Assembly: GCA_964187785.1 (NCBI GenBank)
Contig: OZ076409.1
Span: forward strand, 4,032,001 to 4,096,000
Direction of reading: 5' to 3'
From: Amphiscolops sp. MND2022
Lineage: Eukaryota
Length of the DNA stretch: 64,000 nucleotides
In this document: positions 1 to 46,387 of the stretch, piece by piece
Numbering within the stretch: position 1 is the first letter of the stretch
How the letters are laid out: every line of letters starts with the position of its first letter
Position numbers and translations under genes: made by a program
The notes under the pieces: model-generated
Seen by the model: the letters and a program-made list of their open reading frames with translations, nothing else
Databases searched by the model: none
Told to the model about the DNA's origin: nothing

Positions 1-21
1 GCTACCTTCCAATGTATCCGA

Positions 22-2615: not shown

Positions 2616-3916
2616 AATGCCCACAATGGTCCGTGTGGTCACTCGTCTTCCGGTCAGTCTTTGCTCGCTGATGGCCTCATGTCTGACTATAGCGAGTGTT
2701 TGCGTGCCGGTGCTAGAGCCGGTCGTTGAATTTGAATTAGACCCAAAGTCCGCTAGCCTAGTGCCACCGACGGTTGGCGGCGTGGGCAAGGTAACGGTCG
2801 ACTGAAAATCTTGATGGGATCTTGTCGCGCCGGTGCTAGTGTCGTCACTTCGAGTGCCATACGTGATGGCCGATTCGCTACCAACGTCAGTGTCAGTGTC
2901 CATGCCGGAGACAGAACGAGATTCACGCTGGGAGATGGTTTTAGTGGGGCTGCCCAAATTCAACCTGCTTGCTCTTTGCACGACGCTATTCAGCATTTCA
3001 AAGGATGCTCTCGCGCTTTCGTCGGCACAATCCTGAGGACACTCGTAACTTGCTCCTGGTTGAGAGCGACGACGGGATGTCCGGGGTCGAGACTGATTGG
3101 GTTTGTCTCTGTGAAGCATTGTTTTATTATGGCCCTACTGTAGCAGACAAGGATTTTGGCCCGGATCTGCACGCACCTCAGGAGGGACGGATTCGTTGCT
3201 GAAATCATTAGGGTACGCAATCTCTCGAACCTCTGCGGGGCAATGGAGGGCTTGTGCAAGAGTGGATCGTGCTAATGACCCATTTTCAGTCTCCATCCCG
3301 AAGCAAGAATCATCGTCAGTTAGGGACCGGTAGTCCATGGGTCCCCTGTTGACTTGCTGCTCATTCCGCGCGGAAGCTTCTGTTGTTCCTTCCTCTGTTT
3401 GTCCTTGTTGAATAGCCGAATCAGATATCAAAGTGGCTTGTTCACTAGGAGCAGAGCTTGCCAGCATATTTTGTTCCTCGGAAGTAGTTCCTGTGGGGTG
3501 ATTTGAGCATCAGGTTTGTCCAAGAATACAACTCTAGGGACACTTTCGGGCACCTCTTCTTCAGGAATTAACTCATTCAAACCAGGAGTGATAGCTACGG
3601 GATCACTTATACTGACTTTATTCTCAACAGGAAGTTAGTTATTGGGACCCAAGGAAACTGGCTCGACACTTGCTAACAGTTCAACAGTGCGGCTGATGTA
3701 AGCTTCACAACTTTCCGTATCAGTATTGGAGGAAAGTTCGACTAAAGACCTTCTGTCCGCTGGCATTTCGATGAATTCTGGCTCTGGTGCACGAGCGGTC
3801 GGAGGTGTATCAACTTCCATAATTTCAGCAGCGTCTTGACTGGGTTGGCCATTCATTTCTTTGTTTAAACGGAAGGAAATAAAATTGCGCGATCCACTTC
3901 CGCTGAAAAAATCCAT
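2615..3916 (-). pseudogene. 5' part of a decayed antisense accessory ORF of E1 (acidic, Ser/Thr/Pro-rich)
   Basis: ORFs 3635-3916, 3135-3467 and 2610-3119 join through one stop and frameshifts; same position, orientation and composition as the N-terminal half of the E2 antisense gene. Confidence 0.55.
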
Positions 3917-5200
3917 CTTATCGCGTTAGAAAGTCTTTCGAAAGTAAGTTCAATATGTGTTCACGCCTATGGCTGAATATTTCACGATGGAGGAAGTGAA
4001 ACTTAGTCAATGGAAAGCCCTGATCAAGCTCAAAATTGGCAAAATATTTCAAAAGAACCAACCTGATGTTTGACTAAATTGGCAAGCGGAATTTGAAAGT
4101 TGAGTTTGGACTGCTAGACTGAAGGATTGGCGTTTGTGAACCACAAGGATTGTTGTTGAATTGCAACTGACTGTTTGAAGCTGGCTTAGGGACAAAATTT
4201 GAACATAGGTCGAAGTAGGTCGAACAGACTCACAGTCCAAAGGATGCTAATCTGCGGGCGATACTGCTACTGTGACAAGAGTTGCAAAGCTGTTATGTTA
4301 TGAGCCAGCAGGCTAATCTGCTTCGAGGAAATGTAGATCAGGATTTCGAATAATATTGTAACGAAGGAGATAAACAATTCAAATGCTGCAATGTTAGCTG
4401 TGCGAGTGATTAGACTGGTTTTTTATGCTCTATGACAATTTGACTACAAGTCCATTTGCTAATTCCTACTTACTAATATTACTCTTGTCTTCTAAGACGG
4501 TTAAATATTTAAATGTGAAATGCTCTAAACAGACCTAGATTAAAGAATGTCGTGGCGAAGTTCAAGTTATTTCATTGTTGTTATATTTATTACCTCTTTA
4601 TACAATTCATCAATTCTTAATTTCGGTGTTATGGAACCTGCCAGTGAAGTACACCCAGCTTTTTTCCATGCATCATTACTTTGTTTCATCGCTCAGTTTA
4701 CCATCATTCCAATCATTCAATTACATCAATACTTACTAGTCTACTATTTTCATTCATACTTCATTCAGAATTATTTACTCATTTATCGGATTACTCTGAT
4801 TGGTTGGATAGTCACAACTAGACGCGGAGACCGACGGTCTTTGAAGGTACTTGACTGGTGTTAACGAGTGATGATAAACAATCTCATCGCCCATTAACAC
4901 CTCTTGCCTAACTACTGCAACCACTTGAAGTGACCTTAAGTGCTTAACAACTTAACGGGCGGCCTATTATCAAAAAGCTAATTAAGGAAAGGATCTGCTT
5001 AATAAGGAACGTCGAAGAATTCGATGGAAGAAGCGGGAAAAGCTTCACGAGCCCATTCTCCCGCGAATTTTGCGAGTCTCAACCTAAGGTCGATCGGCCA
5101 AAGGTCGCCATTCTCTCCAAAATTCTCTCTGCGAATCGGTCGACTTATATAAAGCTCCAAAATTGCCAAGAAAATTATCTTAAAGAGATTTCAAGCAGAA

Positions 5201-5953
5201 ATGTCTTTACAATTTGCGGTCGATGACTTGATCAATCCCTCGGTTAGCCTATCATACCTCTCCTCTGAAGAAGATATGGAAGTGGACGACCCACTGACGG
5301 TAAACGAAATTGGGAATTCTGACAGCGATATAGAAATAATAGCCTGTTTCAAGGAAGTGACTGTCGCAAGACATCAGGGTATTGCAGGCCGTTGCATGTC
5401 AACCGAAATTCCAAGCGACAACGACAATCTCTCCATCTTAGAGCGACTATACGGTCAGTCGACGAGGGGCGACTCAGTGCCTTCTAATGAACTGGTTGAG
5501 TTGGTTCTTGGGAATAACCCACCTAACGCGTCCGTGAAACCAGAGTATCAACAGTCAATTGCCGTATGTAGTCAATTAGAACCTGTAGTTGACTCACCAC
5601 TGTCTCCACCTATATCAGAGCAGGGTCCAAACTTTACCTATTGGTCCAACCCGTTGGAGGACGACCTACCATCTTACCAACCCGAAAATCCCCATATCAG
5701 GGGAGTGGCTGTTAGCTCCAGTGGAATTTGCGGAAACGCAAACCAAGTCACTCAATGTGACTGTATCGTGTGCGGCAAATCAGCGGATACAATCAAAGAG
5801 GAAATTACCTTTGACTATTTGGAAAGAACACATATTGCTGGAGAGAGCAATGTGGCCCGACTCAGAAGAAGAAATGGTTTCCAAGCAAGAATGCATGCTG
5901 GGTTTTTCGTTTTAGTCCCGGGGGAGTGTCGCAGGCGTAGTCAACGATGCTAA
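5201..5953 (+). CDS. E1 sense accessory ORF with C-terminal CxxCGK domain, function unknown
   Basis: 250-aa ORF, TATATAAA at 5146-5153; C-terminus CIVCGKSADTIKEEITFDYLERTHIAGE..RLRRRNGF aligns by eye with E2 ORF 22315-23334. Confidence 0.75.
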   Translation: MSLQFAVDDLINPSVSLSYLSSEEDMEVDDPLTVNEIGNSDSDIEIIACFKEVTVARHQGIAGRCMSTEIPSDNDNLSILERLYGQSTRGDSVPSNELVELVLGNNPPNASVKPEYQQSIAVCSQLEPVVDSPLSPPISEQGPNFTYWSNPLEDDLPSYQPENPHIRGVAVSSSGICGNANQVTQCDCIVCGKSADTIKEEITFDYLERTHIAGESNVARLRRRNGFQARMHAGFFVLVPGECRRRSQRC

Positions 5954-7662
5954 CAACATGCCCCTACTTCCAGGGGTATTGCCACTGTAAGTCACAACGA
6001 CCATCAGTCTACGCTTCAGAACTTTTACAAACTGTTAGCCCTTGCAAACCGAGATAATATTATTTTATATTGATACGGACCGTAAGTACATATTCCTACT
6101 CAAGACAAACTATCACGATTAAATTTTGTCAACTAATATGCCGATCCTATACATTTGTAGTTTTAATAGATTTCGCAATGTAAACGTACATTTACCATTT
6201 ACACACTAGTCATGAGTCATGTACATATATATGCATGCTTATGCAATGTAAACCAGAATAACTTGATGATTGGATTATGAAGCAATATGTAAAAATATTT
6301 GCATGCGGATACAAATGCAACTATATAGATCAAAGTAAATGCGTTTAAACTGTCTTCCGCGCTAGTCGACTTGAACGCGCAGTCCGCCATTCAATTAACC
6401 AATCAGCGTTGAGCTTTTCTTATCTCATTCATTCATTTGCTAGCCATTACGGTCGAATCTTGTATTACGGACCACCAGTCCACTCTGTGTATTTATTTAC
6501 TTTAGCGTGCTTACATGCAAATAGACATAACTGAAGTGTCATAGTATTGATATTTAGACTTGAAAGGCGTGCCGCCTTAACTCCCCCTTCTCCGTTTTCC
6601 TTTTAATGACATTAAGGAAAGTGCTAATTATAGAATGAAATCACCATGACGTAGAGATAATATGATTCCCCAGGGTTGAGCTACCCAGATCTAGTGCTAT
6701 TTTTAGTCTTGGTAACTTGACGTCACAATGACGTTGAGTCTCTGATGCTATTTTTATATAATGATCTCTGATATTTTGAGCGTCATGGCCCCAAAAGTAT
6801 ATATACGAGGATCGTGAGGCAAGCGGGACATTATTCTACATACCTTGCTACAACCTCTCCAATTGAATGAACACAATTATCAATTCGGAACTATTGCTGT
6901 GACTTTAGAACAGAATACTATTGGAAATCATTGTGTAGTTAATTACTGTTTTGAACATTAACTTTGTTTTGAAATACCTTGTTTTGAAACTTGACAAGTT
7001 CGTTGTTGTAACAAACTGAACAATTCATTATTGTTCAAACAAGATTTTCCTCAATGCCATCCACTAGAAAACAAAAGGCGAAAGAAAGGCGTTCTAGACA
7101 AGTCGACTTGATGTCTGATACAGAAAATCTAGATATAATGTTGGGCTTTTACTCAAGAAATGAACTGGAAAGCAATTCAATTGATAGAAATGATGATATC
7201 GACCATGAGTCTGATAGGACTAGACAAGACGTAGCCCAAAATAGTAAGGATTTTAGATCACTCCTCAATTCAAATAGTAGAGAAAACAGTGAATCAACTA
7301 TAGAGACCATCAGGATATTAATTTAGAGATTTCCAAACAAATGGACGGATTTAGGAAGGAATTAAAATTACCTAATAAATTAAAAATAATAATGGATACC
7401 ATTAATTCCGTGATTAGTGAAAAGGTCCTTCTTGATATACGCAACACCATGGTAAACCAACATCCTAGGTTTCGGGGAGAAGTGGACCACCGGTCTAGTA
7501 GGCTAAGCAGGACCGCCGAAGAGGAAAATATTGGAAATGCATGGAAAACCAACTCAAAACCAATTTTAGTCAATAGTAGTCAGCGTAACTACTTTCGGGA
7601 GGACTCAGACGCTTCCTTACTAAGTGACAATGGTAATGAACCAATAACTATTGGTCACGACA
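5927..7662 (+). repeat. 3' LTR of E1 (~1736 bp, inferred), containing the gag N-terminus
   Basis: Termini TGTCGCA...CACGACA (TGTCG/CGACA inverted); preceded by purine tract; contains frameshifted ORF 7054-7662 (MPSTRKQKAKERRSR...GHD) at the position gag occupies in the E2 LTR; partner LTR not in window. Confidence 0.75.
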
Positions 7663-7861
7663 TTGCGAATTGATTGTAAAGTCGCAAAGCGTTGTGCTGA
7701 TATCATAACTCATGTTAATCAATATCATTAGATAAAACAGTTTGAAGGGGTGATCTTTGGCCCTAGTGCAACGTACTTGCAAAATGATTGGAAACGTCAA
7801 TTTGAATTTTGAAAACATTCGAATAAAGAACACTAAGCTTTTTTTCGGAAACAAAGGTTCA

Positions 7862-8030
7862 AACAGAAACAATCAGAGATGTATGAGTTACATTGGATGC
7901 GACGAAGTCATTCAAATTGGAAGTCAATGTTGAGCCATCGAACAATACTTCAACGTATCGAGAAATTATCGAGATCCGCTCGTGGAATCCAAGACAGCGA
8001 TTTTCCGAAGAAAGTCAGAGTTACTTAATC
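7862..8030 (+). repeat. Dispersed repeat, second copy at ~26134-26300
   Basis: Shared ACAGAA.CAATCAGA...CGAAGTCATT...TTGGAAGTCAATGTTGAG.CATCGAA...GATCC.CTC. Confidence 0.7.
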
Positions 8031-8875
8031 CAAGAAACTGTTACTTAGAAGAAAGCTTTATTACTTTATCTTTCCATTTTTCATCACCCGCTTTCAAACT
8101 AAATTTTAACCTGAATCGATTGAACGAAAAATTCTATCTTTTATGTCAAATCGGCGGTAATAATTGATTCTAATGATATAACTATGATAAAAGACAATCG
8201 TCTGAAAGCTTCAGTTATCCTAAACCACCGCCTATTTGTTTTGTTTTTGTCATATGACAAAAATTATGTTCCGGCTGGTTACGTTTTGGCTGTGGCGAAT
8301 TTCGAAAAAAAAATGATGGTGTGATCAACGTTGTATCAATTAGTCAGTCAATACAGACACAGTAATACCCTTACTGTTTCAATTCTTTTAGTAGCTCTGA
8401 ATCGACAATGCTCGGTATTGAAATACTTCTTTATTTACCAAAAATTCGGAAGGGAAAGATTCTCTTCTTAGTTGTCTTGCGTATTACGATAGCGCGTATT
8501 GAATACTTTTCGTTTTTGAAATATAAATACAAAATAATCCAAAACAATTATTCAGCTGAAAATTTTCGGAAGAAGTGAAAACTATTGGTGAAACCTTTCG
8601 AAAACGTGTTCGTTGACAGTCAGGAATTAGTTTTTGTGACATATTTCATTCAGTACAGCCCCTAGCTAAAAATTAGCTGCCAAAACTATATTAACATATT
8701 ACATATAATGGGGGAAGAAAATCATAATCTGTTTTGCGTTTTTTTTGTTTCCAAGTTCTACCAAATCTCCACGTTCACCATTTTCACTTGACTATATTAC
8801 ATATTTGACTATTTTAGTTACTTGACTATTTCAGTTAATAGTGCTGCCAAATCTTCATTTTTTTAACTCTTAACC

Positions 8876-10396
8876 TGTCGCATCCATCAAGATGCGATGG
8901 TTCCGTGGTGCAACTTTGAAGAGGAACGGACGATAGACTCATTTCAACAAACTCTCCAAAACTCTGATGAACCCGTTTTATATGATGTCTTAAAACTCAA
9001 TGTTGTTTAGTCTCGAAAGTCATGTAAATATGATATTTATAAGATGGTTGTTGTGAATGGACCTTCATCATAGTGCTAACATACCTTCATTGCTTCATTG
9101 GGAACCCTTGTTTTAATCATACAATGAGTTATCTCATTATCTAATCATATATTCTAAAGGTCCTAATGCATCTAAATTCGTCATCAGATAGTAATCTACT
9201 CCTTAGCATAGTACAATTATGCGGTACTATGCGAATCGAAGTGTGACGTATACTCGTCATTATGCGTTTTTACTAGTATCATTATGCGGCATTATACGTT
9301 TCAAGGTGTAACGAGTATGCGGCATTATACGTTTTCCATAAAAACATTATACGGCATCCTGCGGAACTAGTAGTGACGCATACTCGTCATTATGCGTTTC
9401 TCGCAGGACTTGTTAAATGAATCCAGCACGTGTTATAATTCTATCTAGAAGTCAATTCAATTACAAATGAAGGCCATTTTAAGAGATTCCCAGGGTTCAT
9501 TAGTTTCTTTTCCCAATCATACTTTTATGATGTCATGTAGATGTGCTATTTTTATAATATAACGTCATTGGACGTAATTCTATTTTTGTCTCGACTTCAT
9601 ACAATGACTCCCATAAAAAGGAGTGTCATGATTTTCGGATTTTGTTCTGAGTTTTCAATCAGAGAGATTCATTAAGAATCCAACCCTCATCAAGTGCAGT
9701 TACTTTCTCAAATAACTGTAAAACTTTGATTTCGTCACTGCAAAACTTCAACTTTGCTTCTCTTTTGGGATACAAGATTAATTCAAATTCTTCTCCAAAA
9801 GCCAGAAAACATTTTCACCTGAGGCAACATGGGAAATAAGAGAAGCCGCAGGTCTAGAAGACTTGAGACACCGTCCCTAGACAGAGAAGTAGAGGTAACA
9901 CAAATAGAAACCCCTAAAACAGGTAATGAAGCTTTAATTGATCTTAGTAATGTTGCCCAAGGGAATTTAGGTGAAAATAGCTCCGAAAAACAGTTAACTG
10001 AACCTAGTCAAATAAGTAATGAGATGCAAGTTTGGACCTAAATCATGGAACAAAAGAACAACGATAGGATTGAAAAGATGAGAGAAGAAAAGGAAAACAA
10101 ACTTGGGGCGATTCTAAAGGAAATAAAGTCCAATAAAAGTGCATCCACAGTAACTAATCCTAGGTCGGATATAAACGAAATGCGAGAAAATCAACCATCG
10201 GGATCCAAATTGAGTAAATCTATAGGAGTTCATGCATCCAATAACGAAAACTCTGATTCCGAGAACGACGACTATCCTCTTAGAGCATCTAAAATGAAGG
10301 ACTTGAAACATCCTGCTAAGCCCTTCTTTGAAACTGAAACAGACTTAGATCAAACAATACTCTCAAATGGAGAGTCTGAACAAGAGGATTATCACA
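8876..10396 (+). repeat. E2 5' LTR
   Basis: Direct repeat of 23291-24811, same length, roughly 25 substitutions counted by eye (~98% identity). Confidence 0.97.
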
Positions 10397-10410
10397 TGGT
10401 GACAGGAGCC
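10397..10410 (+). promoter_or_regulatory. Primer-binding site TGGTGACAGGAGCC
   Basis: TGG (complement of tRNA CCA) immediately after the LTR-terminal CA; priming tRNA not assigned (resembles Leu-type TGGTGTCAGGAG with one mismatch). Confidence 0.8.
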
Positions 10411-11495
10411 AACCGACAACTCCATAGACAGAGCTCACAAAAGCTAAATGATACAATTGGATCCCATGCACACCAAAATACAACAAACTCAATAACACAA
10501 CCACTTGATCCAGTTAATCAAATCGCTCTTGCAATAGAGTAATTGGCCAACAAAAACTCTCCCCAATCACTTTTTCACCCCAAAAATACACTCACCTTCA
10601 ATGGGAATAGTGAGAAAAACGAGAAATTTGAATATTTTGAGGACTTTTTCCATACAACATTACGAATGCAACCAAACTTAACAGAGGGAATGAAAAATAA
10701 CCATTTCCACGCCCATCTGAGAGGTTTGGCACTTGAAACCTTCAAAAACATACAAAGAACTCCCACCACGACGTTGGAGGACATTTTAAAAGTCTTTCGC
10801 CGAAAATATGTAAAACCAGAGTCCAGTGCATCTGCTAAACATAGATTCAACAGACACTTTTTCGACCCAGAAAGCCAAAAACTTCCGGACTTCTTAGAAG
10901 AACTCCAAGAAAGTGCTGAAAAAGCGTTCGGGGACAATGCCCACCAAATGATAGAGAACCTACTCTATGCCAAAATGCCTCCCCACCTCAAAAAGTCCAT
11001 TAACCAAGCTTATCTTGAGAATGGCACTTACGATCAAATTGTCAAACACCTTGAAAAAGAAATGGAACTTAACGGCCTAGAAGCAGACGACACTCTCGTC
11101 AAAACTCAAATGACCGTTACTAAAAAAGAACAAAATACCGAAAAAACCAACAAAAAACAAACGGACAAAACCAAAAAACAAACCCCAAAAACAGTACCTG
11201 ATAAAACCCTCAAAAACGACCAATGCCGTTACTGCAAGGAGACAGGCCACATGATGACTGACTGTCCCAAATTAGCCAAACGGCGCAAACTCGAGGAAGA
11301 TCCGGAAGCCGAAAAATGTCAAAATTGCAACACCCCAGGACATGATGAAGAAAACTGTTACTTCGGAGCCAACATGGAAAATCGTCCAACCAAATGGAAC
11401 CTCACAGAAGCCCAGAAAAAAGTCATTGAAAACTACAAACATGCCAAAAAACCTATTAAACCAAAAATGGAACATCAACAATCCTCTTCGAAGGA

Positions 11496-11502
11496 TTTAA
11501 AC
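11496..11502 (+). promoter_or_regulatory. -1 ribosomal frameshift heptamer T TTA AAC at the gag/pol junction
   Basis: X XXY YYZ in gag phase just before the gag TAG; the -1 frame is open from here into ORF 11571-12548. Confidence 0.8.
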
Positions 11503-14500
11503 TAGAAACGCCACGCCTTTACACAAAATCATCACAAAAACCAAACTCAATTGATGACTGGCAGCATCAGTTGAGCCCAAAACCTACAAAAACATCAGCC
11601 TGTGAAGCCGACTCAATAACAGAAAATATACAACAACTAACTCTGGAAACTCAACCTGAAGACTTATACGAACTCTTACACGATGCACCAGACAACTACT
11701 TTCCTCAACAATCCAACAACCCCGAAACCGACCCAAACTCAGAAATCCAACACACAACAAAACACCACGTAACAATAAAAACGTCTTACAATAATGAGAA
11801 ACAACCTGTTCTAATTGAAGACCTCAGAGAACATATACAATTTGATAAGGAACGAAACTTATCATATCTCCCAATTTCAACCTCTTTAACATTGAAGCAA
11901 AAACGCCACATGTACTACATTCCGATGGCCTTCGAAAAACTCACGCTTGATGGTCTCATTGATACTGGAGCTCTCACAAGTTCAATCTCAGAACAAGACC
12001 TCAAGAAAATCAAGTTGCTCGCCAATGAGGCAATAGAAGAAACTGGTCCCCCACCGAACTTCCAAGTTATGGTGGCAAATGGACAACTTGAAGTCCCCAT
12101 CCGTACGGTACTACTAGAATTTGAAGTGGCTGACTTCATGTTAAAAGAAGACTTCATCATCATGAAAAATCTACCGACCCCACTAATCGGATTGTGTTTC
12201 CTCCGGAGAAATAACGCAATTTTCGATGTCACACAGGGTATCCTAACCTTCCCCTATCTATCAATGCAACTTAAACCAGAAACACAAACATCAATACGGC
12301 AAGCAACACCATTATTTGCTGAAAATACCTACACCTTACAACCAGGCGAAACACTCGCCACCGCAAGCAGAATGCCCCATTTGATGGATCATAATGCCAC
12401 CGGCATAGTCACCCCATCGCAACAATATGAAAACACGATAGCATTTTCATCACTGCATCGCTCAGTACTGTCAACAACAATGCTATTGGCTATCAAATCA
12501 TCAACTTCTCTGAACTACCATACACCATTACAATGGACACCCATTTAGCAGATTTCAAGATTTTAACACCAGAACAAATCAAACATATACAACCAGTGGA
12601 CCCTGCATTGTTATCGTTTATTCTTCAACGCGAAGAAACAACAGAAGTCACCATAAACGAACTTCTTAAAGTACCACACCAAAACCCCGAACAGGAGACC
12701 TACTGGTTCCCTACTCCTGATGAACCAGGCGACCCTACAACATATACCCCAATTCAGCAACGCATCTAACAAGAGCTTCTTGAACTACAAACTGAACCCA
12801 AATGATAACGACTCCTCAAGGAAAACATTTCCTTCAAACTTCGACTGGTCTGATACAACACTCGGCCCAGAAGAACGACAAGAAATTGAGGAAATTCTCA
12901 TCGAATTTCACGACATCTTTGCCAGACATCGTTCCGATATCGGAATAAACCGCGAATTCAAAGTAAAATTAACGCCGAATGACGACAGACCTGCTTACAG
13001 CCAAAGTCTGCCAACTCCTATCAATCTCAAGGATGATATCACAGTAGAACTCGCACTTCTACACAAGTACGGTATCATTACAACTTTACCTTTTTCCAAA
13101 TACGCCAGCCCAATTTTTGCACAGCGCAAACCCAACGGTCGTCTTAGACTTTTAGTAGACCTCAGAAAGATTAACAACCTCATCACTGAAGATTACACCA
13201 ATAATAATCACCCGGTAAGCACTTTATCAGATGCAGCACAACATATGGCAGGGAAAAAACTGTTCTGCAAGTTGGATTGCTCACAGGCTTATCACTGCCT
13301 CCAGATGGCAGATTACCAATCCATTCAAATGCTAGCCTTCAACTTTGCCAGTAGAACATTTGCTTATCGTCGTCTTGCTCAAGGCCTCCCTAGATCACTT
13401 TCTGCATTTTCAAGCTTTATGAGAGAGTACCTAGATCGAGAAATTAAAGCTGACCAATGTGCCCAATATGTCGATGACATTGGCATAGCGGCAAACGACA
13501 CAAAACAACTATGCATAAATATCAAAACTGTCTTTGAATGCATTCGCAATGCAGGACTAAAACTCTTTCATGTCAAAATGTCACTTTGGAGTCAAACAAG
13601 TCGACTTCCTAGGGCGTACAATAACACCAGACGGAGTCGCCCCACAAGCGGACAAAGTCACCGATTTTCTATCAAAACTCCGATTCCCCAAGTCAAAGAA
13701 GGCGTTACAAAGGTATATTGGATTTCTAAATTATTATCGAAACTACATACCACGCCTTTCAGAGCGGCTTTCTCCGTTCTTCAAACTCCTCAAAGAAACC
13801 TCCAAATTCTACGTACCCACAAACTTGGTGGAAGCCTTCACCAACCTCAACAAACTTCTGGAAAATTCCTGTCGATTAGCATTAAAACAACCACTGAAAA
13901 ATAGACAACTTATAGTCATGTCCGACGCACTTTTCACAGCAGCAGGATATGCTATCATGATCGAAGACGACCCGAACCAAAAACTTCAATCTAAACGAAA
14001 AACGTATGCAACCATTGCATTTGGTTCAAAAACCTTTAACCCAACACAAAGTTAAATGTCAATATATGCGAAAGAATTCCTTTCCATATATTTCGCATTT
14101 GTAGAGTTTGGACACCTTATGTGGGGAAGTACTTTCCCAGTCATAGTCTTCACTGACAATCGATCAGTAACACGCTTTTTTCAAGCAAAAATGATTCCAC
14201 CAGCACTGTGGAATGCGTGCGATTACGTCTTACAATATAATTTCGTAATTGCTCATGTTGCTGGATCAATGAACACAGCAGTTGACTTCTTATCTAGAAC
14301 AGAAGCTGACCCAACTGAAAAACTAGAAATGACAATCCGCAATGACATTCACACCAAAGCTATTGAGGTGAATATCCAATCAACCGGAATTGTAGACGAA
14401 GAGCAAATTTACATTCTACCCGAAGATGAAATTGATGAAAATCAACTTTGGGAAGAGAAACAAAATATTCGAAACCAAGCTCAAACAGAAACACACAATG

Positions 14501-16365
14501 AACCAGAAACTGACGTCTCTAAACTACAACAATTTCACAAACCCACATCGGGGTTGATCTCAATCTCATCAGGATACTTTAAGGATAATGCAAGAATTCG
14601 CCTCGAGCAGAACAACGACATCGTCCTTAGAAATCTGAGAGCAAAACTTGAAGGAAACCCATTTGATGAAAACGAATTGGCGTCCGATTATAGATACCAA
14701 CACTACTTACAAAACATAACCCGAATAGAAATAAAACAGGAAGTCCTTACACGAAAATACTACACTGACACAGGAACCATATCTCACTACCAAATTCTCT
14801 TACCGATCCAACTTCTAGAAGAATTTCTTCAAGCCCTACATGGTCACAATTCAAACCACCCAGGAATCACCAAGATGATTCAAGAAGCCCGACAAAAATA
14901 CTACTACCCATGTATGGCTAAATACATCAAAAAATGGGTCAGTAACTGCCAAGTGTGTATCCAAACAAAACGCATTAACAATGATCTTCTCAGAACTGAA
15001 CTCCTAAATTGCCCAGAATGGGATCTTGGTCCAGAAGACATTCTGCAAATGGATATTTTGCCAAACCTCCCCCCAAGCGGAGGCTATGATCATATCATCA
15101 CGGCGATTGACGTCTTCTCAAAATATTTGTTTGCCTACCCTGTAACTCGCATCAATGCAACAACGGTGTCAAGAGTTATCATGGACATACTATGCAAGCA
15201 CACTTACCTTCCTACAACGATAATCACAGATTTAGGCACTCAATTCAACGCGCAAATAACGCACGAAGTTGCAGCAGTGCTAGGAATTGAACTTAAACAC
15301 GCAACAATGAAACATGCTCAAACGATAGGACTCCTTGAGAGAACCCATGCTTCAGCCAAAACACACCTGAAAGCTGCAACAGGCGAATTCAGGAATAACT
15401 GGCATAAGTACCTACCGTTGGTAGTCCTAAACCACAATACAACGTACCATGCATCACTCGGTTGCGAGCCTTCACGAGTTTCTCATCGTAGAATACCACA
15501 TAGTATCCTAGACTACAAACTCGGATATAACCCTAACCCACGATACCAACCACAGACTGATGTGGCTGAAGAAATCCAAAAACGTATGAAAATCCTTCTA
15601 GATCAAACTAAGAAGAACATCATGCAATCTTATCTCAAATACAAAGCCTACTTTGACAGGAAAGCGAAAACAGCTCCTCTCGAAACGACGGACTATTGTT
15701 ACATTCTTAACCCAAAAGCTGATAATCAAGCGACAAAAATACCATTCCGCGAATTCAGATGGTGTGGACCAAATAAAGTGGAAAAAGTACTCCCTAACAA
15801 TAACTATTTTGTCCGGAGACTTGGCACTAACAAAAGCCAACTACTACACAGGATCCGTCTGAGGAAATATACTCCACAAGCCCCATTAGCCGATATTTTC
15901 GTTCGTGAAACTGATTGGCAAAAAGATGATCAAACGCCTATAGCAAAGGATGATCTATACGCCCAATCATGGAACACAAATTTCGGAACGAACCCGTTTG
16001 AAGACGGTCCGTCAGAGTTTTCTCAGGAAACTGAAGATGCTGAATATGCTCCAATTCAAATACCTGATGATAACCACCCTCCCTCCCCTGGATCTTCAAA
16101 AAATGGTGCGGGCAGCCCAGTGGAACAGACCACTGAACCCAAAAGAGAAAACAATGAAATTTCACGAGAAACCCATGATGATGAAATAGAAAACCCACAA
16201 AAAACCCAAAATGATAAAAATAATACATCCCAAATTGATACCCAAAAAACCCCAGAAAACCCTGAAAACACCCCATTGCAATAAGAACCTATAAATACCC
16301 GTGGTGAAAAGTATAACCTACGACCCAATCCCAACCCAAACTACTCTGACTCATATAGATACTAA
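11496..16365 (+). pseudogene. pol: E2 pol: aspartic protease, RT, RNase H, integrase; several frameshifts and stops
   Basis: LIDTGA; RLLVDLR, KLDCSQAY, YVDD; SDA..AAGY, TDNRS; H..HPG..CQVC, IDVFSKY, TDLGTQF, LERTH; tail ends YNLRPNPNPNYSDSYRY* after one stop at 16282. Confidence 0.96.
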
Positions 16366-16549
16366 AAAGAAATACAGAAGAAATTGTTCTCTCATCTTTC
16401 ATCTCGATTCACTTTTCAGAGAACCTTTTTCGAATTTCTTCCGATTATAATCAAACAAATGGCCTAATAAAGAAGCATTAACAAACAACAGAATAAACTA
16501 AACAAAATTGAGACACTCGATCACAAAGTCATCATAGTATATGATCCAA

Positions 16550-19500
16550 CTAGTTTTTCTTGCTTTTACAAGAATTGCTCTTTACTTTAGCAGAAACTGA
16601 ATCAGTACGTGCTTCAGCACATTGTGAGACTTCTAGACTAACTCTGCTAAGAGTTGGATCTGGAGTAGGAGTACTATTTGCACTACTACGGCGGCTCACA
16701 CTTGGGGTAGTACTTCTAGAACTTACAGGAGGTCTTTCAATACGAAGGACAGATTTCCGATAACAAGTTTCGAGTTTGCCCAAAAGAGTAGATCGCTTCT
16801 GTCCATTTCCTTTGAGAAAGTTCCGAATGGAGAATTTCTTGTCGGTCAATAGATCAGTTCCTCGGCCAAGGAGTCGAAAAACACGAGAGATTGATTTAGG
16901 GTCTCGGTATAAACTTGAAAGTTGCGGAATTGTCTGGTATGATGCCTGTAGACTCCACAAACAGGTTTGGATAGCTTCAATTCCATTCTCTAAACTGGTA
17001 AGAGGGACGATGAAAGGACTTGGTATATTGATTAAAGGGGATAAACACAAACAGGAGTATCTGTACATTTGATACAATTCGGGACGACATTGAATCTCGT
17101 AATGAGACGATACGTAATGCACCCAATCCTCGTAATCAGGGACAGGACAATCACGAAGTTTTGTAACGAAGGATCGATACTGGCTTGTAGCTTTTGTTTT
17201 ATCACTAGCTGAGATACACCCTCTGGCAACGAAATAGGATGCTAACTTTTCAATTGAAGCAGTATATTGCTCCTCCGAACCCTCAAATATGACACTAGGG
17301 TCGAATGATGATAACCCCCTAATCAGGTCAGATTTGATCACTTCGTGACTCAGCAGCAATTTACAAAACGCCTTGCAGAAGGCGATTGATTGATCAACAA
17401 ATTTGCCTGGGCGAGGCATTATACTGGCAACAACAAGATTGTAAAAGTCTTCATTAAGTATAACTTCGCTTGATGTTTTGAAGGGCAGCCCAGTTTGGTC
17501 CAAATCTAAATGAAGATAACCATCCCAATTAGAAATGCTTCGAAGCGTATCATCTGGAAGGAGGTTTTGGAGCTGGCTATATACAAAAACTGCAAACTGG
17601 TTGTATAGCCGAAAACCCCCTTCAACTCCTTGTTTGACTTCGTGGAAGGCCGAGTTATCTGAAACAAAAGGAAAATAGTGACACTTTAAAACGCGTTATG
17701 ATCTCAACCAGCACGCAGAGATAAAATATACGTCAATATACAATTCAATTTGTGACGATCATACGCCATAATACAAATTCAACAATGTGTCTATACGTCA
17801 TTCAGCGGATCTAGGTGTGACGATTATACGTCACTATGCGGAATTGCAAATTGGATTACACGTCATCCAGCGGACCGAGATGTGACAATTGTACGTCACT
17901 ATGCGGAATTGCAAATTGGATTATACGTCATTAAGCAGAATTGCAAATCGGACTAAACGTCATTATGCGGAATTGCAAATCGGACTATACGTCACTGTGC
18001 GGAATTGCAAAGTGGACTATATGGCATCATGCGGAATCCACAGAACGAATATACGTCATTATGCGGAAATCACTGAACGTACTGAAAAGATTAACCGAGC
18101 CAGACGATTTACAGCCACCATACTCTTACAGCTTAAATAGGTGTAAAGAAAAGTACGGAAAGAAAATGGACCATGTTCGTTATGAAAACAGTGGGATTAA
18201 TCGGACCATAGTAAAAAGGGAAATGAAAATTTTACTGGGGACTTGGATGTTGTAGCAAAGACCGTCTCAAGAAAATGAAAATGACTAACAGTGGTCTATT
18301 GTGCATCTGATAATGAAAAGCCGGGCCAGATAAGTGGTGTCTAAGCGAAAACACTCGTCCAAAGTGTTCGGCTGAAACAGAAATGAGAACTATACGAAAA
18401 GAAGGAAGGCTAGTCTACAACAGACAGAAATATAATAACCTCTCTCATGTGAAATCTGTATTCTGGCAGTCTGGCCACTTGATTTAGGTGTTCACGCACC
18501 CGGTCCCAATACTTGGATAAGTCCTCTATGATGATGGACGCTTCGCTCAAAGAATACTCAAGCCGAGTTATACACTAAAATGAAGAAGACCTGTAAAGAT
18601 CAAACTCAAGTGTATTTGTACCGAACACAATATGATATGCTACATACTTTGTGTAGAGTTGGCAAGTTCTGTACCCAGTCTCGATCCAATGCTGTACGTA
18701 GTTTCATTAAAAGGAAATCTAGAATCGTACGAAAATTATGTCGCTCAATGATTTGAGCGGTAGGTAGGGCAAGACTGGATTCAAAATTGGACGGTTCATA
18801 AGTACTGGTAATGAATGACCTTTTTACACCAGGTAAATTAGTCCAGAGACAATCAGCTAATTTTTCATCAAAACCAACTAAGGAAACGCAAGAAGGAGCA
18901 GTATCAAAAAGACTGATGAACGAGGCGAGTAAAGCAAGAATCTTGCGGGGAAGTAACATTCCTCTTGGGGAACTGCCCAGGCACACACGGTGGAGCACGT
19001 TTCCAGACCAGAATGATAAAATGATGAATGAAGTGGTAACAGAGTGTTGGAGTGATAACGAACACAATCCAGAGTCGGAGATCTTGTCAGTACAGTAACT
19101 CATTAGTTCTCTGAACATATGTACCAGGATGGCCTGTTAACACGCACAAAGTAAAAAAGAGCTTACTCAATTAAATGAAAATGCGCGACTAAAGATTAAA
19201 ACACTTCATACAAGTCACAATGCGAAAGCGAATGTCCTCAATTCAATAGTTAAAATAAAATACTAACATAGAGGCGTTGATCGCTCGAATTCTGGGTAGA
19301 CAACACGTTGGAAGAAGTCAGTCTGGATACTTCTCCATAGATCCCAGAAAGGTTGTCTACGTGTCCCCCATTTCTGAGCCCGAACTCTAAAATGGTTATT
19401 TGGAACAAAACCTTCTCAGTAGGACTGGATGCAATGTTTGTAGCAGGGACTGCAGATTGTCCCACTAGAGGATGTCGAGAGTCTAATTGGGGCGCTATTG

Positions 19501-20957
19501 GATAAGTGTCCTTTGCAGCTTTCTTCGCGTTTTGGAGGGCTGTTCCAAGGATCTCTTTACAGTCTTTATCAAACAAAGGCATGCCGGTTATCTCCATACG
19601 GATTCGATGCTCTTTGATTAGGTGTGAGTCAGTCCGATAATGGGAGACCAGTTCCAAGGGTCCTCGACTCATTAGGGATAATTCCACACGACACACCCTA
19701 CACCACCACTTATAGGGAGTTTTATCGGTGTCGAGTGGACCAGTAGCAGAAAATTGCAACACTGGGTGTTTGTTCAACATTCCAACTGTGAGGGAGAATT
19801 AGGTCTCCTTCTCTTACCATAGTGCGTGCTATCCTGATACTGTCTATCGGAACGGACAGCCATTGATGATGAAGGCCCTGATAGTTCCTCCTGACTAGAC
19901 GTAGTGACAATTACAGGGTCCGCTATAACGTCAACGACGGACAAGGATAGAGGTTGACCTAGATTTGCTCCATCTCCTGTAAGTAAGTCTGGTGGGATTC
20001 GCCCCAAGAAATTATTGATGGTCGTTAACTCTCTTCGGGTAATGCTGAACTGAGTATACTCTCCTGGAAAGTCCTGCATTGTCACTTCTTGTTCATTGGA
20101 TACTTGGATCTCCTCCCCCTCTGCCCCAAATATGTCGCCTTGGCTGAGTAACATAGGGTTCTCATGCGAAGCCCTGTCGAAGCCGGTGGGTGAGAGATAT
20201 TGATTAAACTGTGGTGGAGGAGTTTGGGTTACTTGTAGGGGAGGATAAGTCTCTCCCATGACCACTTGTGATCTATTTTCAACGTTGTCTCCGCTGTAAT
20301 TATGATCGAGGCCCACTTGGGAACGGGGCGTGCATTGACTGGCGGAAGCCTCAACTTCAGTCCTTTCTTCCTGCTCGTGATCAGCGGGAAATATCTCACA
20401 TGTGAAGTGTGGAGCAGCAGTCACAACCTTTATCCCTTCATCAATCTGCAAAATAGGGGTGACAGGGGATTCCAAAGAGCCTTGGGGTTGAACTAAATTT
20501 GGAGATGCTACTTCTAACAAAATCAGAGTTTTCTCTGGTGTTTCTGCTGTAGGATTCCTTACTGAAGTGAGTTCAGCTAAAACAATGATCGATTACTTGT
20601 AGAAAAGAGGAATTGATCACGCAAACGAGTTCGTCCTAGATTAACTGAAACCAGACGCGGCAACAGGAAATGAAAAGAACGGATGTCGTTTAAAGTTAGA
20701 AACGGAAACGTTTCAAAAAATCTGACTTTGTTTAGTAATCCATAGCTAGACATTTTCAATTCGTAAGCCTGGCCAGCTTCGAAACCCTACTAAACTCCCT
20801 AAACCAAATCAAGTCTAAACAAGAACATACTGAACTTACTTTGTGTGGATTCCAGGGGTAGATCATCAGCCCAAATTTCATCGCGCTGTAGCTTCAACAG
20901 CTCCTTTCTAGTCAATCGGGTACTAGAAGTCCCAGGCTCTCCTGGTTTAGAGTCCAT
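16550..20957 (-). CDS. Antisense six-exon gene inside E2, ~1080 aa, hAT-transposase-like with C2H2 (BED-like) zinc finger; one 1-nt deletion near 19785
   Basis: Exons 20957-20840, 20576-19268, 19133-18648, 18574-18440, 18371-18290, 17658-16550; donors GTAAGT, GTTAGT, GTATGT, GTTATT, GTTAGT; pyrimidine-rich AG acceptors; phases 1,0,0,0,1 all match; WCRVCRVELSLMSRGPLELVSHYRTDSH. Family assignment is by eye. Confidence 0.8.
17750..18070 (+). repeat. Degenerate ~31-bp tandem array (TATACGTCA.TATGCGGAATTGCAAAT.GGA.) inside the last intron of the antisense gene
   Basis: About ten ACGTCA.TATGCGG-type units, all within predicted intron 17659-18289. Confidence 0.85.
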
Positions 20958-21309
20958 TTCCTATCCAGAAGTTCACTCCCTGAGGGATGATAAACGTTTG
21001 GAAGTATTCAGGAATTTTCCTTGAAGAGGAAGATAATGAAAGAGAAGTAAGACGAGGAGAGAACTAATTCTGTGGAAAATGACAAAAATGACTCAAAAGA
21101 CTATAAACGATAATTGAATTAACGAATAAAGTAAAGCAAGTTATAGGCGTGGCGGTAAAAGAAAGGCAAAAGAGCGAATGAGACAGTTGTGCGCAAATTG
21201 GTAAAGAAATACTCAAATCTGATTGGCTAATTAAATGTCAATCACGTCTGCCAGCGTGATTGATTGATTCATTACAAGGTTAGCCATTAGCTAATTGCAT
21301 GCATAATGT

Positions 21310-21556
21310 AATATGCGGCAATATGCGGATTGCTGGTGAAGAATATGCGGCAGTATGCGGATTGCTGATGAAGAATATGCGGCAGTATGCGGATTGCTGA
21401 TGAAGAATATGCGGCAGTATGCGGATTGCTGATGAAGAATTTGCGGCAGTATGCGGATTGCTGATGAAGAATATGCGGCAGTATGCGGATTGCTGATGAA
21501 GAGTATGCGGCAGTATGCGGATTGCTGATAAAGAATATGCGGTAGTATGCGGATTG
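21310..21556 (+). repeat. 32-bp minisatellite AATATGCGGCAGTATGCGGATTGCTGATGAAG, ~7.7 copies
   Basis: Near-perfect tandem copies between the two divergent accessory genes. Confidence 0.95.
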
Positions 21557-22314
21557 AATAGTGGCGTATACTCGTCACCCTGCGGTTTTCGCTGCATGTA
21601 TTTAATGATATGAATTAATGCAGTTCGTGATTAGAATTGAATACACAATGAGATGTTACGTAATACTCTGGAGAAATTAAAGCATTCTCATGAAAAACAA
21701 GTGTGAAATTGTTGATGTTTTGGTATACGGCATTGACACCCTGTTGAAAATCATCAACCTGCTAGCATTTTTAAATGCGGACTGAGCTTAATGCATGATT
21801 TCCCTTAAAATTAATATTTGATTTTGGGAGAGGTATTTAACGTAATACAAGTTTCATAAGCCTTTTCACCATTTTATAAATTAGTCATGTAAAACTATAT
21901 GAATTTCTTTTTCTTTCTTCTTTCATTCGAGGAAATATATTCATGAAATCGTGTTAAGGTTGATTGCTTTGATCTTAGGCTAAATTTTGTTTATATATCA
22001 TTTGTTTGCCAAGGAACTTACGAAAACTCTAGTGATAAGTGACGATTTAACGAAGTGTTAAAGCGAAACACCTTTTATGGAAATTGTTTATAACCTATTG
22101 TAAATGAGTCTCATGATACAATCACCGACAAAACCCTTATAAAGGAAAATGGAGATTTTGAAAAGCATGACGCTCAAATTCTGCGCCGGTTTTTGTCAAA
22201 AACAAGAGGAAGAAGAAAATCAATCACCATATCGTCTTTGCAATTTCATAAATCAGTTGCCTTCTAAATTCTTTGAAAATCTGAAATACTCAGTGGTTTC
22301 TCTGCAAATCTAAA

Positions 22315-23334
22315 ATGGAAAAACTCCAATTTAATACTGATGTAAATTCGCTATACTCCCCTATATCCCCTGATGTGGTGGATATTTCGAGCGAGTCAGA
22401 AAATAGCTTCTCAATGGCTCCCGGAGATATTGCCCAGCTTGACGAAAGATTTCGAATTAATACAACTGGGAGTAACCTGATGTCGGCATTCATGGGCTCA
22501 ACATTGTTTTCGTTATATGTGGATCCAGCCACTACAGCAGAACAGAATGAGTCTGTAAGTGCCACAGGGACACAGATACAACAAGACTTGATGGAGTTGT
22601 TAGGGGAACCGCAAGAAGATAGGATGATTTCCCCAAGTTCGTTCATAGATAGTGAGTTTGAAGAAGGGAATTTGTTCCCCTGGACGCTGGGTAATACCCC
22701 TCCTGAAGACACAAACAATTATGGTCGGCCTACCGCCAGGGTTCCCCCTACCCAAAGAGTGAACCCCAGTGCAGGTGGGATATTGCCAAGGCCAGTCCCC
22801 ACTTACCCACCTAACTACAGGCCAGAGACATCTGATTTTCAACACACGCATTCTAGTGAACCCATGGATCAAGACCCACGCAGAGATATAGCTCCGACTC
22901 AAGGTACACTGAATGCAGTGCAAGGATTTAATTTGTCACCTGCGTTCTTCCCCATCCCAATGAAGGAAGCTCCCATTGAGAACCGACAGATCACAGTTCA
23001 TCCAATGGTGCAGTTGGGCTTTCCTTTTTGCGTGACACACAGCACGAATCTCATTCTTATCCCTGCAAGAGAAAGACAAAGCATGAGACTACTGCCAACC
23101 GTCATGTCAAATGTGGCGGGTTACTGCGACATATGTGGTAAATGCTACGATCAGATCGCACTGGAAACGTTGGTTGAGTACCTCATGGCTACTGAATACG
23201 AGGGAGAGAGAGTGAAAGAAAGAGCGATTAGATCAAGAGCATTTATCCATGGATTCGAAGCAGCCCTGTTCCTCTTTAAAAATGCGGGACTGTCGCATCT
23301 ATCAAAATGCGATGGTTCCGTGGTGCAGCTTTGA
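22315..23334 (+). CDS. E2 sense accessory ORF (339 aa, intact) with C-terminal CxxCGK domain; stop 44 nt inside the 3' LTR
   Basis: Uninterrupted ORF; CDICGKCYDQIALETLVEYLMATEYEGERVKERAIRSRAF matches E1 ORF 5201-5953. Confidence 0.8.
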   Translation: MEKLQFNTDVNSLYSPISPDVVDISSESENSFSMAPGDIAQLDERFRINTTGSNLMSAFMGSTLFSLYVDPATTAEQNESVSATGTQIQQDLMELLGEPQEDRMISPSSFIDSEFEEGNLFPWTLGNTPPEDTNNYGRPTARVPPTQRVNPSAGGILPRPVPTYPPNYRPETSDFQHTHSSEPMDQDPRRDIAPTQGTLNAVQGFNLSPAFFPIPMKEAPIENRQITVHPMVQLGFPFCVTHSTNLILIPARERQSMRLLPTVMSNVAGYCDICGKCYDQIALETLVEYLMATEYEGERVKERAIRSRAFIHGFEAALFLFKNAGLSHLSKCDGSVVQL

Positions 23335-24811
23335 AGAGGAACGGACGATAGACTCATTTCAACAAACTCTCTAAAACTCTGATGAACCCGTTTTATATGA
23401 TGTCTTAAAACTCAATGTTGTTTAGTCTCGAAAGTCATGTAAATATGATATTTATAATATGGTTGTTGTGAATGGACCTTCATCATAGTGCTAACATACC
23501 TTCATTGCTTCATTGGGAACCCTTGTTTTAATCATACAATGAGTTATCTCATTATCTAATCATATATTCTAAAGGTCCTAATGCATCTAAATTCGTCATC
23601 AGATAGTAATCTACTCCTTAGCATAGTACAATTATGCGGTACTATGCGGATCGAAGTGTGACGTAAACTCGTCATTATGCGTTTTTACTAGTATCATTAT
23701 GCGGCATTATACGTTTCAAGGTGTAACGAGTATGCGGCATTATACGTTTTCCATAAAAACATTATACGGCATCCTGCGGAACTAGTAGTGACGCATACTC
23801 GTCATTATGCGTTTCTCGCAAGACTTGTTAAATAAATCCAGCACGTGTTATAATGCTATCTAGAAGTCAATTCAATTACAAATGAAGGCCATTTTAAGAG
23901 ATTCCCAGGGTTCATTAGTTTTTTTTCCCAATCATACTTTTATGATGTCATGTAGATGTGCTATTTTTATAATATAACGTCATTGGACGTAATTCTATTT
24001 TTGTCTCGACTTCATACAATGACTCCCATAAAAAGGAGTGTCATGATTTTTGGATTTTGTTCTGAGTTTTCAATCAGAGAGATTCATTAAGAATCCAACC
24101 CTCATCAAGTGCAGTTACTTTCTCAAATAACTGTAAAACTTTGATTTCGTCACTGTAAAACTTCAACTTTGCTTCTCTTTTGGGATACAAGATTAATTCA
24201 AATTCTTCCCCAAAAGCCAGAAAACATTTTCACCTGAGACAACATGGGAAATAAAAGAAGCCGAAGGTCTAGAAGACTTGAGACACCGTCCCCAGACAGA
24301 GAAGTAGAGGTAACACAAATAGAAACCCCTAAAACAGGTAATGAAGCTTTAATTGATCTTAGTAATGTTGCCCAAGGGAATTTAGGTGAAATTAGCTCCG
24401 AAAACCAGTTAACTGAACCTAGTCAAATAAGTAATGAGATGCAAGTTTGGACCCAAATCATGGAACAAAAGAACAACGATAGGATTGAAAAGATGAGAGA
24501 AGAAATGGAAAACAAACTTGAGGCCATTCTAAAGGAAATAAAGTCCAATAAAAGTGCATCCACAGTAACTAATCCTAGGTCGGATATAAACGAAATGCGA
24601 GAAAATCAACCATCGGGATCCAAATCGAGTAAATCTATAGGAGTTCATGCATCCAATAACGAAAACTCTGATTCCGAGAACGACGACTATCCTCTTAGAG
24701 CATCTAAAATGAAGGACTTGAAACATCCTGCTAAGCCCTTCTTTGAAACTGAAACAGACTTAGATCAAACAATACTCTCAAATGGAGAGTCTGTACAAGA
24801 GGATTATCACA
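23291..24811 (+). repeat. E2 3' LTR, containing an intact copy of the gag N-terminus (24244-24811)
   Basis: Direct repeat of 8876-10396, followed by TSD TAACC. Confidence 0.97.
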
Positions 24812-24826
24812 TAACCCTAATAAATT

Positions 24827-46082: not shown

Positions 46083-46387
46083 AATTTTTTAATTGAGTAA
46101 TAAAGTGGCGATTTTGCAGAATTTAGAAAAAAAAGCAACACAGATCATGATTTTCTTTCCCATTATATGTGGGCGGCAAATACCAAATGTTTGATACCTG
46201 GGTTCCGTGTAATCTTTCTCATTCTCTCAAAGCAGTGCTTTGAGAGAATGAGAAAGATTACACGGAACCCAGGTATCGAACATTTGGTATTTGCCGCCCA
46301 CATATAATGGGAAAGAAAATCATGATCTGTGTTGCTTTTTTTTCTAAATTCTGCAAAATCGCCACTTTATTACTCAATTAAAAAATT
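46083..46387. repeat. 305-bp palindrome: 152-bp arms, 1-nt spacer (46235), one mismatch
   Basis: Centre CTCAAAGCA-G-TGCTTTGAG; arms read as reverse complements except TTTGATAC versus TTCGATAC. Confidence 0.97.

Follow-up and report, generated by a model that had tools for sequence, protein, structure and literature searches.

Arrays of a short paired motif at three non-coding sites of a Gypsy-type retrotransposon in Amphiscolops sp., and a hAT-like antisense protein as their candidate binder

The window is a 64,000-nt stretch of the 1.07-Gb genome of Amphiscolops sp. MND2022 (contig OZ076409.1, positions 4,032,001 to 4,096,000) and contains a Gypsy-type long terminal repeat (LTR) element from position 8877 to about 24243. 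The element has arrays of a short motif, TATGCGG, in its LTRs, in the last intron of an antisense accessory gene, and in a minisatellite of the promoter region. These arrays are real, selected, and specific to the element's family, and the motif covaries in part with a zinc finger encoded by the antisense gene. Judged from the DNA alone, there is about an even chance that the element comprises a self-addressing regulator like VANC and TnpA of plants, placed inside an LTR retrotransposon. A disarmed hAT-like protein would bind the paired sites and regulate the LTR and its own promoter.

Distribution of the motif

The window contains 26 TATGCGG, all on the + strand, and all inside the element. 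Three are in the 5' LTR (9218-9316), four in the intron (17835-18060), 15 in the promoter minisatellite (21312-21546), and four in the 3' LTR (23633-23731). The number expected in the element is 0.67 (30 dinucleotide shuffles), and the 48,065 bases outside it have none on either strand. A sequence-only reading of the window had placed one motif at three non-coding sites of the element, and all 26 copies bear this out. The arrays are as follows.

9210-9400, + strand: 5' LTR motif array, 65-bp period, with TGACG-N6-CGTCA dyads and TATGCG(G)
17750-18070, + strand: intron motif array, 32-bp unit, within the last antisense intron (18289-17659)
21310-21590, + strand: promoter minisatellite, 7.7 x 32 bp, two TATGCGG per unit, ending in TACTCGTCACCCTGCGG
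23625-23815, + strand: 3' LTR motif array

Clade A, the clade of the window copy, was sampled as 41 stretches of 10 kb, consisting of the window copy and 40 of the 150 finger matches listed, chosen across the identity range. These stretches contain 699 forward and 4 reverse TATGCGG, with 691 of the 699 within the three site windows, and the motif is present at all three sites in 41 of 41. Its density is 17.1 per 10 kb in the family and 0.6 in the background, about 30-fold lower, the background being 20 fixed-position stretches reduced to 16 by dropping four with family parts. A genome-wide tandem-pair pattern has 1535 matches, compared to 0 for the reversed control. Of 20 pattern sites picked from the first 100 listed, known finger matches excluded, 19 fall in family parts. 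The enrichment check that had been proposed thus came out in favour of the element, and equal frequency outside it was not seen. Queries with the finger exon each give about 6,500-7,900 first-look candidates in the genome, which are not copy numbers.

The one remaining sampled site (L058:5971-6033) is a TATGCGG cluster in both orientations, located in a 1.6-kb inverted-repeat element (arms 5296-5350 and 6888-6942) outside the family. Four other loci (L043, L047, L049, and L051) are non-autonomous derivatives of about 2.6 kb, which comprise an LTR, a gag piece, and the end of the sense open reading frame (ORF), are mostly arranged head to tail, and retain the array. In three of the four, the LTR array consists of the promoter-type unit.

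Repeat unit and its conservation

The unit is a 20-bp bipartite direct pair, ANTATRCGKC-ANTATGCGGA, with a 12-13-bp variable linker. The CGTCA and TATGCGG of the sequence-only reading are both present, as parts of this one repeat. Its period is 32/33 bp or a 65-bp dimer at all three sites, which contradicts the earlier description of unit lengths that differ between clusters. Tandem Repeats Finder reports 32-bp arrays at 17822-18037 and 21310-21556, the second being the 32-bp promoter minisatellite already described. The TATGCGG spacings at the sites are 10, 22, 32/33, 43, 54/55, and 65. Two linker types are found at all three sites, so the arrays probably share one ancestral unit, and the three separate amplifications once proposed are not independent.

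Information content reaches 1.8 bits per base in the unanchored half-site and is 0-0.5 in the linker (222 distinct windows from 20 subfamily representatives). The clade A dyad TGMCG-N6-CGKCA is spacer-specific, with 100 occurrences at N6 and at most 3 at other spacers. Match values to 18 distant copies are 0.52-0.80 for the array bins, inflated because repeats align easily, 0.66-0.69 for the finger exon, and 0-0.33 for most flanking non-coding bins.

Motif and finger in sister clades

Four further clades (B, C, D, and E) were sampled at 20 loci each. The 20-bp word occurs 6.7 times per locus in clade A, and at most 0.2 times in the other clades. An unbiased scan for k-mers and dyads ranks the motifs of clades A, B, and C first, and yields nothing in the background.

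Clade C has a finger of the LKTKG type, arrays in the last intron and the LTR, and scattered copies in the promoter. Its motif is an inverted pair, TATGC(G/T)GTTTT..AAAACAGCATA, in units of 39/40, 50, 68, or 26 bp, and its arrays use both orientations. The motif is counted 548 times, compared to 3.7 in shuffled sequence, and 27.4 times per locus, compared to at most 0.8 in the other clades. In 19 of 20 loci, each of the three sites contains the core at least three times, and the dyad prefers the spacer N12 (159 versus at most 15). A universal helical-turn rule was considered and is ruled out by these unit lengths.

Clade B has a divergent finger and lacks TATGCGG arrays. In their place is a dispersed dyad, GACY-N3-RGTC (294 versus 10.7), which occurs along the whole element, coding DNA included. 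It was spotted by eye in five loci and then held in the remaining 15, at spacer 3 only (294 versus at most 23). The dyad occurs 14.7 times per locus in clade B and 0.1-0.3 times in clades A, C, and D. A neighbouring element at 1-7700 of the window is a clade B relative, with 13 GACY-N3-RGTC copies in positions 1-8000, several of them in coding DNA; the finger part of the antisense gene was not seen in this copy. The fixed dyad spacers of clades A (N6), B (N3), and C (N12) are as expected for a dimeric binder.

Clades A, C, and D have a common finger type, ELSL[MK][ST][RK]G, and the core YATGCNG, and clades B and E share a different finger type and have motifs of their own. The deepest motif change thus follows the deepest finger change. 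A tree of the last exon of the antisense gene (48 rows) has C and D as sisters within an A+C+D group, and B apart with L133 and L140; these two loci alone represent clade E, L140 being the clade E query. The clade E motif is possibly CCG-N4-CGG, a dyad found post hoc (135 versus at most 44), to which repeats close to the integrase tail may contribute.

These clades bear on two explanations that need no DNA-binding protein. Tandem repeats without a function, which arose by a single duplication from the LTR and persist through slippage and gene conversion, would account for the period and linkers common to the sites, for the absence of arrays in clade D, and for part of the conservation score, given the easy alignment of repeats to distant copies. 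This origin is very improbable, however, as the linker drifts around a conserved 20-bp word, clade C has rebuilt units of four lengths on the same core, and the clade B dyad is non-tandem with a fixed spacer.

The words could also act in RNA, as splicing, packaging, or dimerisation signals. The three clade A arrays all share one orientation, and the promoter array on the + strand folds slightly better than shuffles (z -2.05). An RNA role is nevertheless hardly to be expected, since the other five strand and site folds are no better than shuffles (z -0.71 to 1.56), both orientations are used in clade C, and the non-pairing C..A form of the clade B dyad (89) exceeds the wobble T..G form (51). 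A shared RNA structure of the sites was rejected on the fold scores.

Host transcription factors as possible binders

In the principal alternative, host transcription factors bind the arrays, which would have been amplified as enhancers of the LTR and the internal promoter. The motif would then comprise, for example, a CREB/ATF half-site, TGACG, beside a Runx-, GCM-, or ETS-like word. Tandem enhancer repeats are common in LTRs, the promoter array adjoins conserved CCAAT boxes, and clade D thrives with the finger and without arrays. In addition, TGACGTCA is enriched in clades B to E (0.6-2.2 versus 0.1 per locus). In contrast, the paired motif is nearly confined to the family. The GCM word is ATGCGGG, and only 0-2% of TATGCGG sites are followed by G. 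Clade C freely exchanges TATGCGGTTTT and TATGCTGTTTT, which breaks the Runx word, and the clade B dyad lies in coding DNA as well. A literature search, with most subscription journals and supplements outside its coverage, did not find TATGCGG as a binding site. Host enhancers are an unlikely explanation.

Element layout

The LTRs enclose gag and a pol with the order protease, reverse transcriptase (RT), RNase H, and integrase, which places the element in Ty3/Gypsy by its domains. An intron-containing antisense gene is located between pol and the 3' LTR, and a sense ORF diverges from it. The parts other than the arrays are listed here in window coordinates.

8877-9828, + strand: 5' LTR, TG start at 8877; 3' border approximate, gag ATG at 9829
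9829-16284, + strand: gag-pol, with zinc knuckle, protease, RT, RNase H, and integrase in Gypsy order
16550-17658, - strand: last exon of the antisense accessory gene, a helical part with a weak match to Hermes 256-573
18574-18440 and 18371-18290, - strand: two small exons of the antisense gene
18648-19133, - strand: RNase H-like-fold exon of the antisense gene, best match Hermes transposase 153-265
19268-20576, - strand: long exon of the antisense gene, low-complexity N-terminal part and a CCHH BED-like finger (about 19708-19620)
20840-20881, - strand: candidate short first exon of the antisense gene, putative, donor at 20839
21150-21300, - strand: conserved block with two CCAAT boxes (ATTGG at 21197 and 21222), the probable antisense-gene promoter
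22315-23334, + strand: sense accessory ORF, acidic and proline-rich N-terminus, conserved CxxC C-terminal domain; stops inside the 3' LTR
23292-24243, + strand: 3' LTR
24244-24812, + strand: second gag start, directly after the 3' LTR; tandem unit, ends at 24812

The cluster that had been assigned to the last antisense intron is indeed found there (18289-17659) and in no other intron of the gene; the splice sites of this intron are kept in six aligned copies. The promoter minisatellite lies next to the CCAAT block. In the window copy, gag-pol is disrupted by stops and frameshifts, and the long finger exon is split over two frames.

A direct repeat (8875-10397 and 23290-24812) has 98.3% identity, and its second copy extends about 570 bp beyond the LTR into gag. 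Some family copies are arranged in tandem with a spacing of about 15 kb. A tRNA primer site was not obvious by eye, and the gag ATG is close behind the LTR.

Antisense accessory protein

The antisense protein likely descends from a hAT transposase and keeps a BED-like finger. Variation in the finger core is minimal within clade A, and CxxC..H is invariant. In the Atlas search, the finger exon scores 0.91-0.93 to hAT-derived zf-C2H2_12/FAM200/zf-BED clusters, and Pfam reports zf-BED at E 0.011 in 4 of 24 finger alignment members. The next exon is modelled as an RNase H core with a clear topology and a predicted local distance difference test score (pLDDT) of 79.6. For this exon, Hermes ranks first both by Foldseek (E 2.6e-3) and by VIA (Z 6.8, root-mean-square deviation 3.1, 104 aligned). 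For the last exon, Hermes ranks second (Z 5.3), with the next Hermes segment in collinear order. In these models the weak Hermes matches agree with one another and are collinear. The earlier assignment of a hAT-like zinc-finger protein to the element thus finds agreement among Atlas, Pfam, Foldseek, and VIA, each of them weak.

The protein likely no longer cuts DNA, as far as the alignment of the RNase H-like exon (exon 3) suggests. A conserved DDE triad was not found when the 40 exon-3 rows were compared at what are presumably the catalytic positions of Hermes. The sole invariant residue is R131; a near-invariant Asp (133) sits beyond the strands, and strand 1 does not end in a conserved acid.

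Other searches were negative. Foldseek found no match for the last-exon model, which is of low confidence (pLDDT 51), and nothing informative came from profile searches of PDB sequences, from Pfam scans of exon 3 and the last exon, or from the Atlas search of the last exon. Homologue searches of the element proteins gave unnamed proteins only, and a metagenome scan did not find relatives. A VANC-type Pfam family is absent among the matches of the window ORFs and alignment members, where Transposase_28 (PF04195) likewise has 0 matches, and the fold points to hAT. Four divergent last-exon homologues (P0063, P0118, P0046, and P0149) have 25-33% identity to all loci examined. They were not found in the source genome at strict E-values, so the antisense cargo may exist in other species.

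Sense ORF

The arrays might instead bind another protein of the element, most plausibly the product of the sense ORF, alone or with the hAT-like protein. This product has a CxxC domain and a transactivator-like acidic N-terminus, and its ORF is driven from the same divergent promoter region. The ORF is conserved in clades A to D and has the same clade pattern as the finger. On the other hand, a Pfam scan found no family match, DNA-binding families included. Across clade A, the identity of the sense ORF ranges from 58% to 95%, and the ORF is exchanged among subfamilies in which the motif and finger core do not change. A sense-ORF binder is quite improbable.

The acidic N-terminus contains a VVDISSESE stretch, which we take to resemble a SUMO-interaction motif. 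Among the clade A loci L008-L040, subfamilies have exchanged accessory gene, sense ORF, and gag. In L010, L013, and L040, the sense ORF is 92-94% identical to that of the window copy and the finger exon 67-72%.

Proposed mechanism and its difficulties

In the self-addressing regulator proposed here, the arrays would be conserved copies of one 20-bp word and putative binding platforms for the antisense-encoded protein. The protein, likely an oligomer as Hermes is, may bind paired half-sites cooperatively, the pairs lying on one helix face in view of the 10-bp repeat and the 32/33-bp period. Bound at the LTR and at the promoter and last intron of its own gene, it would control transcription both of the element and of itself. 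The protein would act in trans on copies with broken genes, the window copy among them, and on short derivatives that retain the LTR array alone. As to the sign of the effect, our guess is activation or anti-silencing over repression.

Several points weigh against this mechanism. Clade D (20 loci) has a finger almost like that of clade C, yet it lacks arrays. Its YATGCNG excess is weak at 10.0 versus 6.0 per 10 kb, with 42, 42, and 59 in the three regions versus 14, 18, and 11 (13 of 20 loci, single-base shuffles). Clade E has a B-type finger, yet just 2.6 B dyads per locus. Since the five clades belong to a single tree, they provide no more than two or three independent contrasts. Cross-clade mixing of the accessory gene, sense ORF, and gag was not found in the loci examined, and the finger is thus inseparable from the sense ORF and gag as the partner of the motif. 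Of the covariation that the sequence-only reading proposed to look for, the change of motif type between clades with different fingers stands, and its assignment to the finger is limited by these contrasts, clade D, and this linkage.

The common period and linkers mean that descent explains part of the likeness of the arrays. Each structural match to Hermes is individually weak (Z below 8) and tied with unrelated RNase H-like folds, and the Hermes BED site, AAGT in the available part of the source, is unlike the motifs here (PMC10368747). CpG is barely depleted (observed/expected 0.77-0.84) and CpG transitions are barely raised (0.083 versus 0.066), so DNA demethylation as in VANC is not indicated. 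Nor does this slight signature point to DNA methylation as a target.

Comparison with known systems

VANDAL is a Mutator-like DNA transposon of plants. Foamy virus Tas is an accessory protein made from an internal promoter, and it activates that promoter and the LTR; its gene is on the sense strand, retroviral, and not derived from a transposase. Like the targets of VANC and TnpA, the motif here is short, concentrated in non-coding parts of its own element, and rare in other DNA.

VANC is the anti-silencing accessory protein of VANDAL in Arabidopsis, for which the accessible text describes demonstrated binding and demethylation (PMC5735166). In the same text, VANC resembles the present case in being element-encoded and in having a family-specific short motif in tandem in intron, intergenic, and terminal non-coding regions (PMC5735166). 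In contrast, the element here is an LTR retrotransposon with a hAT-like protein, predicted binding, and little sign of CpG methylation. TnpA of Spm/CACTA is another self-regulator precedent for the proposed circuit, but in the available text its motifs sit at the ends of a DNA transposon, and protein and transposon are of one class (bioRxiv 10.64898/2026.08.24.746577). The words LTR and retrotransposon are absent as whole words from that available text (bioRxiv 10.64898/2026.08.24.746577).

The Retand (Tat) elements of Ty3/Gypsy also have a long region between pol and the 3' LTR, an antisense ORF for a predicted DNA-binding transposase-like protein, and family-specific tandem arrays of unknown function, as the accessible sections state (PMC11963269). 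They differ in being plant elements with a TRP28 domain, which is unmatched here, and those sections report neither a motif shared by array, LTR, and intron nor motif-protein covariation (PMC11963269). According to the part of the Hermes study available, its BED domains bind quasi-palindromic subterminal repeats cooperatively (PMC10368747). A BED-like finger, a predicted RNase H-like fold, and short quasi-palindromic repeats are probably common to both, cooperative binding being a feature of Hermes. Hermes is an active transposase on ends bounded by terminal inverted repeats, whereas here a retrotransposon contains the repeats and the protein shows no conserved catalytic triad (PMC10368747, same part).

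Other features of the window

The region between protease and RT at 12300-12700 may be a dUTPase relic, and PF00692 is present in a close pol relative (P0375). A 305-bp near-perfect palindrome (99%) is present at 46083-46387. The search for RT homologues gave only relatives without names, and a bacterial promoter scan and a tRNA scan were uninformative.

Significance

Sequence-specific self-regulators are established for plant DNA transposons (VANC and TnpA) and for complex retroviruses, whereas the antisense genes and tandem arrays reported in Gypsy elements (Retand) have no assigned function. Within its coverage, the literature search found no description of the element, of the motif, or of a hAT-derived gene in an LTR retrotransposon. 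Because one element contains both the candidate protein and its candidate sites, and the finger-motif pair differs among five clades, the role of such extra ORFs and arrays is directly testable. In a broader reading, put forward tentatively, an LTR retrotransposon lineage captured and disarmed a hAT transposase and built a private address system from it. Each clade would have its own motif and finger, and the protein would find and switch on only its own kin and their parasitic derivatives, through the LTR, internal promoter, and intron arrays. If true, this would be a VANC- or Tas-like circuit made from parts of two transposon classes, and self-addressing may help to explain the rise of the lineage to thousands of copies.

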